Source: an uncultured Rikenellaceae bacterium
Lineage (GTDB): Bacteria; Bacteroidota; Bacteroidia; Bacteroidales; VadinHA17
Direction: 5' to 3'
Assembly: GCA_964633505.1 (NCBI GenBank)
Contig: CAZWHC010000013.1
Coordinates: forward strand, 11,685-75,684
DNA: 64,000 nucleotides
The notes beneath the pieces are model-generated. The model was given only the letters and a program-made list of their open reading frames with translations, was not told where the DNA came from and did not search any database. The position numbers were made by a program, and so were the translations under genes. The stretch's first letter is position 1, and each line of letters begins with the position of its first letter. Below are positions 42,944 to 64,000 of this stretch, one piece after another.

Positions 42944-43861
42944 ATGTCGATTGTAGTTCAGGGTGTTACAAAATTCTACGGCGAACAGAAAGCTCTCGAT
43001 AACGTATCTTTTGAAATTAAGACCGGCGAGGTCGTGGGATTTCTCGGTCCGAACGGCGCCGGCAAGTCGACAATGATGAAGATAATTACCGGCTTCATAC
43101 CACCCGCATCCGGCAATGTTTTCGTTAACGGCACACCGGTCACCGATGAATCGATGGACATAAGAAGGTCGATAGGATATCTTCCCGAGAACAATCCTCT
43201 TTATCCCGAGATGTATGTAAGGGAATACCTGTCGTTTTGTGCATCGTTGTATAAAACAGGCAGGCCTGTTAAGCAACAGGTCGACGGCATAATAGAAATG
43301 ACAGGGCTTGGAAGGGAGCAAAAAAAGAAAATCGGGTCGCTGTCAAAGGGATACCGTCAGCGTGTCGGACTTGCCCAGGCCCTGATCCACGATCCTGAAG
43401 TACTCATACTTGACGAGGCAACAACAGGGCTCGACCCTAACCAGATTATCGAGATCCGCAATCTGATCCGCGACGCCGGTAAGGAAAAGACAGTGATGCT
43501 CTCAACCCATATTATGCAGGAAGTTGAAGCCATCTGCAGCCGGGTGATAATAATCGATAAGGGTGTTATAATTGCCGACGAAAACAAAAAAGATATTTAC
43601 TCCAGGATAAAAAATGCCTTACAGGAGATCCTTGTGGAGTTCGACAGGGAACCGGGAGATGATCTTCTGGAGAAGATGACTTTTGCAGGATCCGTAAGAA
43701 GGCTAAGGCCTAACACACTGGTCATCGAATCGCGCGGCGATGAGGATATACGTCCGGCCATCTTCTCATTTGCCGTAAACAACAATCTTACAGTGCTTTC
43801 GCTTCAAAAGAAAGAAAACAATCTCGAAGAGGTATTCAGGATACTCACAAACATTCAGTGA
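42944..43861 (+). CDS. gldA: Gliding-motility-associated ABC transporter ATP-binding protein GldA-like
   Basis: 305 aa with Walker A GPNGAGKST, signature LSKGYRQRVGLAQAL and Walker B LILDEATTGLD. The N-terminus recalls F. johnsoniae GldA, from memory. Confidence 0.65.
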   Translation: MSIVVQGVTKFYGEQKALDNVSFEIKTGEVVGFLGPNGAGKSTMMKIITGFIPPASGNVFVNGTPVTDESMDIRRSIGYLPENNPLYPEMYVREYLSFCASLYKTGRPVKQQVDGIIEMTGLGREQKKKIGSLSKGYRQRVGLAQALIHDPEVLILDEATTGLDPNQIIEIRNLIRDAGKEKTVMLSTHIMQEVEAICSRVIIIDKGVIIADENKKDIYSRIKNALQEILVEFDREPGDDLLEKMTFAGSVRRLRPNTLVIESRGDEDIRPAIFSFAVNNNLTVLSLQKKENNLEEVFRILTNIQ

Positions 43862-44054
43862 CAAATCCTGCCCTTGGGGGCTGATTGTTAATCCTGCCTG
43901 TATTTCTTGTATTTTATGCAATTATTTGTTTTCTTTGCCGGTCGAAATCTGGTGGAAAGATTTGAGCTTATTGCAACCACGGGAAAAAATGCTAAAATGC
44001 CATTGATTCCTTTTTTACAATTATCCAATCCTTCCGCTATTTGTTATTTGAAAA

Positions 44055-44547
44055 GATTAAGGGCTAAAGCCCGGCCGATTGTTTCATGCTGCCACGGCCT
44101 GAAGGCCGTGGTTAGGAAATCAGACCGGTTTGCAGCTTTGTTCATTGAAATAATCCGGTTACGAGTTAACCATCAGGTTTATTCCCTGGTGTTCGAATTT
44201 CTATCCTTGGACTGAAGGTGACTCAGATTTTCGGGTTAGCACCCGGTGCTGAAGTAGCTTCAGACCTTAAGGTTTACCCCCCTGGCCCCCCTGAAGGGGG
44301 GATTAAGGAAAACCTGGTAATCAACAGCCTGTTTGAGGAGTTGCAACATACTGGCAAATACAGGGCAGCAGCATGCAACAGTTGAGACAGATGCGTGAAC
44401 CATGGCCTTCAGGCCAGGGTCAGGGAAATGAAGTGAAAAGGACCACCAGCAATCCGGGTACAAAAGATTGCTGAGGATTATGCTTTTACCACGGCCTTCA
44501 GGCCGTGGCAAAACAACGGTAACAAAAAAGGACTTTAGTCCTTAATA
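44055..44547. repeat. Hairpin-dense non-coding unit bounded by about 60-bp imperfect inverted repeats (MITE/BIME-like or structured RNA)
   Basis: Left arm 44055-44114 and the reverse complement of 44486-44547 share attaaggRctaaagYcc plus an identical 23-mer tgccacggcctgaaggccgtggt. The interior has at least 6 further perfect hairpins. Confidence 0.55.
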
Positions 44548-44602
44548 TTATAAAAGTGAATTAATTGTACAGAATCAAAAACAACTATCAAATACTCAAT
44601 TT

Positions 44603-45949
44603 ATGGGCTATTTATTCACATCCGAATCAGTTTCAGAAGGGCATCCCGACAAGGTTGCCGATCAGATATCAGATGCTTTGCTCGATGAATTCCTGAAATG
44701 GGATCCGGAGTCAAAGGTCGCATGCGAGACATTTGTCACGACAGGGCTTGTTCTCTGCGGCGGTGAGGTACGTACAGAAGGCTGGGTCGACGTTCAGGAG
44801 ACTGCCCGGAGGGTCATAAGGAACATTGGATATACAAAAGCTGAATACAGGTTCGACTGCGATTCGTGCGGTGTCATTTCCACCATTCACGAACAATCGA
44901 GCGATATCAGGCAGGGCGTCGACCGCGAGAAACCCGAAGAACAGGGAGCCGGCGATCAGGGGATGATGTTCGGATATGCATGCCGTGAGATGGAGAATTA
45001 CATGCCTCTCAGCATCGAACTGTCACATATCCTCCTTCAGGAACTTGCAGCAATAAGACGCGAAGGGAAATATATGAAATATCTGCGTCCCGACAGCAAA
45101 TCGCAGGTCACCGTCGAATATGACGATAACAACAAGCCGCTTCGCATCGATACCATTGTTATCAGCACACAGCATGATGAATTTGTTCTTCCCGCCGACG
45201 GCTCAAAAAAGGCAGAAAAAGCAGCCGAAAAGGAGATGCAGGAAAAGATCAGGGAAGACCTCCGGAAATATCTTATCCCAAGGGTGAAAAAGACTCTTCC
45301 CGAAAGAATCATGAAACTCTTTAAAGAGGATACAAATCTGCTTGTCAACCCTACGGGTAAATTTGTTATTGGCGGACCTCACGGAGATACAGGTCTTACC
45401 GGGAGGAAGATAATCGTCGATACATATGGAGGACACGGAGCACACGGCGGCGGTGCATTCTCAGGCAAGGATTCATCAAAGGTCGACAGGTCGGCGGCTT
45501 ATGCTGCCCGCCATATTGCCAAGAACCTTGTGGCAGCCGGAGTCTGCGACCAGGCTCTCATCCAGGTAGCTTATGCAATCGGTGTTGCCCAGCCTGTAGG
45601 GATCTTTGTAAATACTTACGGCAGTTCAAAGGTAAAGGGCCCTAATGGGAATATCCTTAGCGACAGTGAGATAGGCGCCAAAATTAAGGGTCTCTTCGAT
45701 CTTCGCCCATATGCGATAGTAAACAGGTTCGGTCTTAAGAACCCGGTTTTCTCACCGACTGCTTCGTATGGTCATTTCGGACGCGATTACAGGGTCGAAG
45801 AGGTTGAAGTTTATTACGAGGTCCCCGGATCAAAGCCACGGCCATTAAACAACAACGGCAAGAAAGCCTGGAAGAAAAAGGTCGAATTCTTTGCCTGGGA
45901 AAAACTTGATTATGTGGAGAAGATAAAGAAGACGTTTAATTTAGAATAA
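44603..45949 (+). CDS. metK: S-adenosylmethionine synthase
   Basis: 448 aa: [33 protein letters not shown]. There is a C-terminal insertion/extension relative to the E. coli-type length. Confidence 0.96.
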
Positions 45950-53179: not shown

Positions 53180-53357
53180 TTATTAATGTTTTAAGGATTT
53201 ACTTAATTTAAATCCCGTAAAAGGAAAATTTCTGATTTAAAAAATGGCTGGAGTTATGGCGGAATACATTTTACCGGCGCATGCACATAGGCATGAGCGG
53301 TATTTGAAGTATTTCCCTGATCTGACAGAATGTTCTCATTGTTTTCCGTGTTTATTT

Positions 53358-53480
53358 TTATCATCTCCCGAACAATCGGGATTAGGTTTTGGCACCTTAA
53401 TCCGTCATCCTGCATTTTTCATTCTGCCGGATTGGTTGCCAGGGTTTCACTGAGCCTAATCTCTCCGCCCTTCTTAATAA
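53358..53480 (-). promoter_or_regulatory. SAM-I (S-box) riboswitch aptamer
   Basis: The minus strand reads UUAUUAAGAAGGGCGGAGAGAUUAGGCUCAGUGAAACCCUGGCAACCAAUCCGGCAG...AAGGUGCCAAAACC...GGGAGAUGAUAA. P1 is UUAUUA/UGAUAA. The GGAGxGA...GGCxC...GAAxCC...GGCAACC and AAGGUGCCAA blocks match the SAM-I consensus. Confidence 0.85.
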
Positions 53481-53523
53481 AAATCAAACACCCTTTATGG
53501 AAGGAATATTTGATTTGTGAGTG

Positions 53524-63864: not shown

Positions 63865-64000
63865 GCGCCGGATGATGATCATGCTCAGGGCCCCAGATGG
63901 AAGCTGACATGCAATAACTCCGTTATTCAAGGTGGATTGGCAGGTTGCATTACGCCATGTCAAAACTCCGCCCTTCAGGACAGAGTCCCGCACTGGATGA

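Follow-up and report, generated by a model that had tools for sequence, protein, structure and literature searches.

A probable mosaic of REP-like palindromic repeats in the metK leader of a Bacteroidales genome, downstream of a predicted SAM-II long-loop riboswitch

Repetitive extragenic palindromic (REP) sequences of Proteobacteria are dispersed between genes as single units, as inverted pairs (REPINs) and as mosaic clusters (bacterial interspersed mosaic elements, BIMEs), and together with a single-domain Y1/HUH transposase (RAYT) they make up the so-called REPtron (PMC2817692, PMC3116915, PMC3337134, PMC6006769). In Enterobacteria, REP elements affect mRNA stability and termination (PMC3733652, PMC2817692), and those of E. 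coli block 3'-5' exonucleases. A related group of Y1 proteins, the IS200-related subclass 1.2 of Quentin et al. 2018 (PMC6006769), has the motif Y---Q--HH, a length of about 148 aa, a low copy number and a distribution largely in Cyanobacteria and Bacteroidetes; it is entered under "no" for REP in the table of that study and is described in its text as generally lacking terminal structures of the IS200 type. Here we describe a locus at which these two themes appear to meet. It lies in a 64,000-nt stretch of DNA (referred to hereafter as the window) from an uncultured Rikenellaceae bacterium of the order Bacteroidales (assembly GCA_964633505.1, contig CAZWHC010000013.1, positions 11,685 to 75,684). 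The segment at 44057-44545 of the window is most probably a lineage-specific insertion, a mosaic of REP-like palindromic repeats, within the 5' leader of metK, the gene for S-adenosylmethionine (SAM) synthetase. It is separated by 51 nt from an intact SAM-II long-loop aptamer on its 5' side and by 57 nt from the metK start codon on its 3' side.

The insert itself is an ordinary repeat insertion, selfish or neutral. What rises above the routine is the link of the repeat family to a clade of Y1 transposases, which apparently is undescribed, and a natural series of insertions in the leader of a SAM-II long-loop riboswitch. In what follows, contigs of the analysed genome (G000) have the prefixes C2, C3, C13 and so on, loci fetched from other genomes are numbered L012, L133 and so on, and a congener is another species of the same Bacteroidales genus.

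The insert upstream of metK

The gap at 43862-44602 is bounded by an ABC-transporter ATPase gene on the left and by metK on the right. An earlier inspection of the letters alone (the sequence-only reading) had noted in this gap a series of hairpins, inverted termini with a common 23-mer and no credible open reading frame (ORF). Direct reading of the sequence recovered every one of those hairpins, and the two ORFs present, of 102 and 83 aa, have no Pfam match. The parts of the insert and the hairpins within them are as follows; R1 denotes a covariance model of the terminal repeat, described in the next section.

44057-44117, plus strand: left doublet unit (L), made of TTAA, GGGC-TAAA-GCCC, a 19-nt linker and CCACGGCC-TGAA-GGCCGTGG; R1 56.9 bits, E 1e-14
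44061-44072: small hairpin GGGC-TAAA-GCCC
44092-44111: long hairpin CCACGGCC-TGAA-GGCCGTGG
44118-44268: interior filler with two small hairpins; unmatched in the rest of the genome and in 211 congeners, no protein remnant
44232-44245: hairpin CGGGT-TAGC-ACCCG
44249-44263: hairpin CTGAAG-TAG-CTTCAG
44269-44310, plus strand: solo hairpin of a second repeat family (C6), TTTACCCCCCTGGCCCCCC-TGAA-GGGGGGATTAA
44286-44301: hairpin CCCCCC-TGAA-GGGGGG
44311-44393: interior filler; no match in the genome or in 211 congeners
44394-44465, minus strand: degenerate extra R copy, CCATGGCC-TTCA-GGCCAGGG, 89 nt upstream of the true R; R1 19 bits, E 6e-4
44403-44416: hairpin TGGCC-TTCA-GGCCA
44448-44474: hairpin CAGCAATC-(11 nt)-GATTGCTG
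44483-44545, minus strand: right doublet unit (R), the inverse of L, made of CCACGGCC-TTCA-GGCCGTGG, a linker, GGAC-TTTA-GTCC and TTAA; R1 67.2 bits, E 1e-17
44489-44508: hairpin CCACGGCC-TTCA-GGCCGTGG
44528-44543: hairpin AAGGAC-TTTA-GTCCTT

The inverted termini are real. Their arms at 44090-44112 and 44488-44510 are complementary at 23 of 23 positions, and the outer arms at 44047-44072 and 44530-44555 are 81% complementary. The left junction (...AAGATTAA/GGGCTAAAGCCC) falls near 44060 and the right junction (GGACTTTAGTCC/TTAATATT) near 44543. Between the termini lie one degenerate extra R copy, one solo hairpin of the second family and unique filler; the degenerate copy and the true R form a direct repeat (D3) with 84% identity at a spacing of 89 nt. 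Since the termini belong to a dispersed doublet and the interior carries further repeat copies, the insert is best described as a mosaic of palindromic repeats in the BIME sense. Six-frame translations of the insert had no match in the genome, and tblastn with Y1 proteins found no coding remnant in it. In a permissive Rfam scan of 43700-44800, the insert had no family match except PhotoRC-I on the C6 hairpin, a sub-threshold hit (18 bits, gathering score 45) that was taken as chance.

Comparison with congeners shows what was added. The distance from the aptamer to the ATG is 61-66 nt in 11 congeners, compared to 597 nt here, and conservation among congeners is confined to about 43896-44050, which comprises the promoter region, the aptamer and a C-rich spacer. 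The whole unit of about 490 bp is present once in its own genome and was missing from 211 of the 211 other species of the genus searched and from 18 of 18 orthologous leaders. Its 375-nt interior had no match in the same 211 species apart from one 40-nt hairpin module, the C6 hairpin. One candidate explanation, that [L...R] is host DNA trapped between two copies of an insertion sequence (IS), was ruled out, as the interior is not homologous to congener leaders and no outer halves are left. Metagenome scans for strains of the same species gave no match for a leader 22-mer, and a metK 26-mer was found only on a contig of a different Bacteroidales (L157).

Folded as RNA, a 501-nt unit (44050-44550) has a predicted energy of -200 kcal/mol, against -150.6 +/- 6.5 for 100 dinucleotide-preserving shuffles, none of which was as good (z -7.55). 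In this predicted fold L pairs with R and encloses the whole insert as one domain. The sequence-only reading had considered a large structured leader or a non-coding RNA for metK, and a dedicated, selected cis-regulatory RNA of this kind (a second sensor or a large leader) would suit the very stable fold, the position in the 5' untranslated region (UTR) of a riboswitch-controlled gene and the double change by which the small hairpins of L and R differ, which would then reflect selection on that RNA. The proposal is largely refuted by the non-conservation just described: 211 congeners and 18 orthologous leaders lack the unit, and 11 congeners have their aptamer some 65 nt from the ATG. Moreover, the unit belongs to no Rfam family, a bona fide SAM riboswitch already lies upstream, and its termini are also found beside transposase genes and in 12 unrelated clusters between genes. 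The remaining argument, that of the double change, is taken up with the repeat family.

The doublet family and its paired stem changes

The terminal repeat is a doublet of about 60 nt. It has a TTAA-like flank, a 4-bp small hairpin (GGRC-TAAA-GYCC), a linker of 16-24 nt and a GC-rich stem of 8-12 bp with a TGAA loop. A census of GC-rich hairpins with TGAA, TTCA, TAAA or TTTA loops in this genome yielded 10 L and 10 R units of common architecture, and the covariance model R1 was built from these 20 copies. With R1, 22-23 units were found in the genome, in 13 clusters, all of them intergenic. R1 units are carried by 39 of 60 congeners, with a range of 0-53 per genome. Within this Bacteroidales genus the doublet is present at low copy number and strictly between genes. 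Columns without variation in the 20-unit alignment are those of the small hairpin and the TGAA loop. Regular tandem arrays of the doublet were seen in some congeners (G060:C11:46155-49337; L137; L147), with 5 copies at a period of 780 bp, 6 at 271 bp and 8 at 88 bp.

The layout of the metK insert is not unique to it. An L unit, tandem degenerate half-copies of R and a final R recur, with interiors that are otherwise unrelated, at C10:114075-114400, C11:26575-26952, C2:99957-100307 and C13:76146-76878. The last of these is a 730-bp cluster [L, three degenerate R copies, R] that follows the second Y1 gene described below. The solo hairpin inside the metK insert belongs to another family, C6 (TTTACCCCCCnnCCCCCC-T(G/A)AA-GGGGGG), with about 10 loci in the genome and matches in congeners too. 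Its copies, among them C3:278376, C3:358016/358059, C5:191137/191172, C5:210432/210471, C8:14806/14842 and C8:21662/21722, stand mostly as inverted pairs 35-60 nt apart, as REPINs do.

These data separate the two forms in which the sequence-only reading had framed a mobile element, "REP/BIME- or MITE-like". A classical miniature inverted-repeat transposable element (MITE) would be a deletion derivative of a DDE insertion sequence, with terminal inverted repeats of about 60 bp and TTAA as target-site duplication. The size of about 490 bp with inverted termini is as expected for such an element, TTAA is present at both junctions (AAGATTAA/GGGC ... GTCC/TTAATATT), and the unit is found in this species and not in others. 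However, the complete unit occurs only once and has a unique interior. TTAA, which is itself palindromic, adjoins only about one quarter of the doublet units, so that no consistent duplication is seen. Together these three observations argue that the insert is not a classical MITE. In addition, where the same termini recur in other clusters, the interiors between them are unrelated and consist of tandem degenerate R copies, and the terminal hairpins are those found beside Y1 (HUH) genes, not DDE transposases. We therefore regard a MITE as quite unlikely, and of the two forms only the REP/BIME one holds, by virtue of termini that belong to dispersed doublets flanking Y1 genes.

The double change from GGGC/GCCC on the left to GGAC/GTCC on the right is present as claimed. 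Genome-wide, the small hairpin was paired in 26 of 26 cases, with 17 G:C, 9 A:T and no mixed forms. GGGC/GCCC and GGAC/GTCC are two standard variants of the whole family, a dimorphism, and the "compensatory" forms at metK are simply one copy of each. The 20-unit alignment is 93% paired, with double changes at 11 of 15 pairs. As its units had been chosen for being hairpins, these counts are in part circular, which weakens their support for the overall reading. This circularity was avoided by a test in which there was no selection on the long stem and the 12-mer small hairpin served as the anchor, mixed forms being allowed. A perfect TGAA hairpin of at least 8 bp was found 17-25 nt after the anchor in 19 of 26 cases, compared to 7 of 2000 random 60-mers. 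The long hairpins after the anchors have four unrelated stem sequences (CCGTTGGC, CCnnGGCC, CTCCGCCT and GCCGTCAGC).

Selection on structure, as proposed from the letters alone, is thus borne out by the anchor test; its target is the repeat family and not an RNA of metK. With the double change accounted for by family-wide alleles, a dedicated metK RNA becomes extremely improbable. A false lead is thereby removed: the hairpins do not amount to a new sensor for metK, which has a riboswitch of its own.

Doublets beside Y1 transposase genes

The mosaic reading draws much of its interest from the genes that the doublets flank. Two Y1 genes of the analysed genome lie between an R and an L unit, one of them immediately beyond the window.

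C2:400342-400773: Y1 gene of 144 aa (Pfam Y1_Tnp, 1e-26), between an R unit and an L unit (C2:400289-400943)
C13:75705-76130, minus strand: second Y1 paralog, 21 nt past the end of the window, 44% identical to the C2 copy, arranged [R unit][gene][L unit] with stems CTCCGCCT
63960-64000 of the window, minus strand: R-type unit cut by the window end, adjoining the stop codon of the C13 Y1 gene; R1 40.7 bits at C13:75644-75706

Both genes end in a TAA stop codon that forms the loop of the small hairpin. An R unit (C7:34481-34537) also adjoins a truncated Y1 fragment (C7:34531-34614) that contains an in-frame stop. The association extends well beyond this genome. Among 80 homologous Y1 loci from named assemblies (Bacteroidales, Chitinophagaceae, Ignavibacteria, Acidobacteriota, Marinimicrobia and others), 18 are flanked on both sides, by a minus-strand unit ending immediately upstream of the gene and a plus-strand unit beginning at its stop. 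About 10 further loci have a unit on one side only, and in L071 the orientation is opposite. Of 38 loci, 7 have their stop codon exactly in the small-hairpin loop, and in many others it is only a few nucleotides away.

The long-stem class follows the Y1 lineage, as judged from 30 congener loci. Y1 genes most closely related to the C13 copy have the stem CTCCGCCT, those 57-65% identical to it have CCACGGCT and CCCCGGGC, and those of the C2 type have CCGTYGGC. Such co-variation of repeat stems with transposase lineage is what one would expect of an enzyme that reads DNA hairpins. At least four units were found in 17 of 22 congeners with a close Y1 gene and in 6 of 38 without one; these genomes are kin, and the difference is therefore not statistically independent. 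The GGCC-type stems of the metK insert resemble stems beside Y1 genes of congeners, for example L133 and L135.

The genome has four Y1 paralogs, of 144-157 aa, with the motifs YIGNQDKHH, YIKNQEEHH, YILNQQDHH and YINNQEIHH and an HUH motif (E/D)H(L/I/M)H; they are 26-44% identical to the first paralog. The remaining two, at C6:188168-188584 and C3:162726-163139, are 26-31% identical to the first, share YIxNQxxHH and are flanked by other inverted repeats. The C3 paralog has GAGCGTCATAGACGCGACCTGTTTGTAG and its inverse, ending in GTAG, and the C6 paralog has palindromes of the AAACCGCTCCGCGGTA type.

By motif, length and taxon, rather than by the tree of the authors, these paralogs fit subclass 1.2 (PMC6006769). 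They share with it YIxNQxxHH, the HUH motif, length, low copy number, mutual divergence and a Bacteroidales host. They differ in that the clade is here flanked by doublets at no fewer than 18 loci across phyla. Likeness to the REPtron of Proteobacteria is broader. In both, extragenic palindromes are dispersed intergenically as single units, inverted pairs and mosaic clusters, inverted copies surround a single-domain Y1/HUH gene, each transposase lineage has a stem sequence of its own, transposase copy number is low with divergent paralogs, and stems show compensatory changes. Unlike the single palindrome of 20-40 nt in REPs, the unit here is a two-hairpin doublet of about 60 nt, and its clusters have long interiors (230-700 nt) of tandem degenerate half-copies. 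With IS200/IS605 elements and their non-autonomous derivatives (palindrome-associated transposable elements, PATEs) the system shares a Y1 HUH transposase, hairpins in a subterminal position and the size of the gene locus, about 650-700 bp. In contrast to these elements, the flanking hairpin units are inverted here, there is no tnpB, and the dispersed form is [L...R] and not an internally deleted [R...L] copy of the gene locus. The doublet-flanked gene copies are only 44% identical to each other, which makes them a poor fit to an actively copying IS.

By analogy with TnpA(REP)/RAYT and with TnpA of IS200/IS605, we propose that Y1 recognises, and may bind and cleave, the doublet as single-stranded DNA, and that the hairpins would be kept because they are read in that form. 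Recognition of this kind would explain the compensatory changes in the stems. The insert may have been placed or built at metK by Y1 machinery acting in trans, the cognate gene for its stem type being no longer in the genome.

Several points weigh against the overall reading, besides the partial circularity of the pair counts mentioned above. The C2 Y1 protein is IS200-like (NCBIfam transpos_IS200, 66.6 bits, cutoff 55) and fails REP_Tyr_transpos (25.4 bits, cutoff 80). The GTAG/CGTC tag at the foot of the palindrome is not evident in the 20-unit alignment, and there are about 22 copies here, compared to usually more than 100 per genome for REPs. The doublet system thus fails three features that define REPs, namely the tag, a protein of the RAYT clade and a copy number in the hundreds rather than tens. 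No Y1 gene flanked by GGCC-type stems is present in this genome, and mobilisation in trans is hypothetical. In the [L...R] insert the small hairpins are outermost, which is the reverse of the arrangement at the [R gene L] locus, so that the insert is not a simple deletion derivative of that locus. About 235 nt of the interior have no recognisable source. Finally, read-through into the insert, riboswitch function and RNA folding are all inferred.

A search of the literature on REPIN/RAYT systems in Bacteroidota after 2018 found nothing relevant, and within the literature searched the conserved doublets of this Y1 clade seem undescribed. Tentatively, and with somewhat more doubt than confidence, we suggest that the doublet is a previously unrecognised cognate repeat of subclass 1.2 Y1 proteins, forming a REPtron-like system in Bacteroidota, Acidobacteriota, Ignavibacteriota and others, and that the SAM-II switch at metK works, separately from it, at a distance. 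If so, the system would be one in which a stop codon is built into the repeat and clusters grow by tandem half-copies. What the data already document is a REP-like system in Bacteroidales, tied to an IS200-like Y1 clade for which the main survey of such enzymes lists no repeats (PMC6006769).

The SAM-II long-loop leader and possible consequences for metK

The sequence-only reading had taken metK to lack a recognizable SAM-I element. As a premise that metK has no SAM riboswitch this fails, since Rfam places a SAM-II long-loop aptamer within the very gap under discussion. The SAM-I element noted for the neighbouring met operon was confirmed, at 53355-53483. Around the insert, the leader and its flanking genes are arranged as follows.

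42944-43861: ABC-transporter ATPase gene (Pfam ABC_tran)
43930-43937, plus strand: candidate Bacteroidetes-type -7 promoter box TTTCTTTG, 9 nt 5' of the aptamer, from a pattern scan
43946-44005, plus strand: SAM-II long-loop aptamer (RF01726), 48.6 bits against a gathering score of 44, E 5.5e-8, model positions 1-60
44006-44056, plus strand: native leader 3' of the aptamer, C-rich, G-poor and unstructured, with the genus-conserved blocks ATTCC..T-run, CAATCAACCAATCTTCC and ATTTGTT
44546-44602, plus strand: AT-rich remainder of the native leader, whose block TGAATTAAT aligns with the pre-ATG region of congeners
44603-45949, plus strand: metK, intact, with all three Pfam S-AdoMet_synt domains, the one copy in the genome

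The aptamer is the only one of its kind in the genome. It agrees with the described SAM-II long-loop family (RF01726; Weinberg et al. 2010, PMC2864571) in matching the model from end to end above the gathering score and in preceding metK in a genome of the Bacteroidales, the usual host group of the family. It differs in its distance from the regulated start codon, 597 nt instead of about 65 nt, and this distance is due to the repeat insertion. Upstream of metK, the aptamer scored above the Rfam threshold in 18 of 18 congener loci scanned (44.3-60.4 bits), and the order ABC-ATPase, aptamer, metK is kept at 19 congener loci. Binding of SAM by 43946-44005, and expression that depends on the ligand, are predicted from this match. 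SAM-II is not mentioned in the TaRTLEt paper. At position 43968 of the aptamer, a T is found here and a G in 18 of 18 congeners (CTTATTGC and CTGATTGC, respectively). The closing pair of the inner helix changes from U-G to U-U, with the score of 48.6 bits still inside the range of the genus.

A possible expression platform is the native leader at 44006-44056. In 11 insertion-free relatives, C outnumbers G by 130:39 in the first 45 nt after the aptamer. RNAalifold on the same 11 leaders returned the stems of the aptamer only, with no conserved terminator, anti-terminator or hairpin between aptamer and ATG.

As judged from sequence, the insert is probably co-transcribed with metK. TTTCTTTG is the only TnnnTTTG in the whole gap, and the block is conserved in congeners; its function as a promoter is presumed from its pattern and position before the aptamer. 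A sigma-70 promoter and terminator scan, uninformative for Bacteroidales, gave no terminator on the plus strand and one weak minus-strand site on the small hairpin of R. Taken together, the single -7 box before the aptamer, the lack of a plus-strand terminator and the single intact metK make transcription through the insert probable. The insert would then be carried in the metK 5' UTR from the promoter that precedes the riboswitch, and L and R could close its RNA into one large stem-loop.

Could the host have put such a stem-loop to use? A repeat kept by host selection, whose closed L:R structure stabilises or insulates the metK mRNA or tunes expression, would be in keeping with the probable transcription of the insert, with its very stable predicted structure and with the effects of REPs on mRNA stability and termination in Enterobacteria. 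Against this, the insert is found in one species only and congeners manage without it, and the 5' UTR is the wrong place for REP-type protection against 3' exonucleases. We consider co-option unlikely, if less so than a MITE, and retain the reading of a selfish or neutral repeat insertion.

This insertion is not the only one at its site. Seven congeners (L012, L013, L014, L024, L026, L027 and L029) have an insert of another kind at this position, after the ATTTGTT block and before the metK ATG. These inserts are 50-130 nt long and consist of AT-rich inverted repeats with AAGTACT/AAGTGCC heptads; a few pieces of the heptad element occur elsewhere in the genome analysed here, for example at C7:186125. 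The aptamer is above the Rfam threshold in all seven. The position has the look of a hot spot for insertions, or of a site that tolerates them.

An insertion-tolerant spot between aptamer and ATG suggests that masking of the start codon is not how the riboswitch acts. The insert would be tolerated if the riboswitch acted at or just after the aptamer, on transcription, possibly in a Rho-dependent manner; Rho-dependent attenuation on the C-rich spacer is put forward here as a hypothesis. The analysed genome and the seven congeners would amount to a natural experiment, in which a SAM-II long-loop switch has 50-535 nt inserted before the start codon. If the interpretation is correct, the switch would operate at a distance instead of occluding the start site, Rho-dependent attenuation being one example of such a mode. 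A narrow site that tolerates insertions constrains the mechanism of a poorly studied riboswitch of Bacteroidetes, for which natural variants are at hand.

Further repeats were seen in these leaders. Between the ABC gene and the promoter, several congeners (L013, L014, L015, L017, L019 and L023) carry GC-rich heptamer arrays, for example of GGCGTGA and GGTCGTGCA, together with clusters of the same small hairpins (GGGACTTTAGTCCC, GGGCTAAAGCCC and CCGTTGGCTTCAGCCAACGG). On the metagenome contig of the other Bacteroidales mentioned above (L157:10380-10548, Ga0129307_1000051), a SAM-II-like aptamer, judged by eye, lies about 110 nt upstream of metK and is again followed by a C-rich, G-poor spacer.

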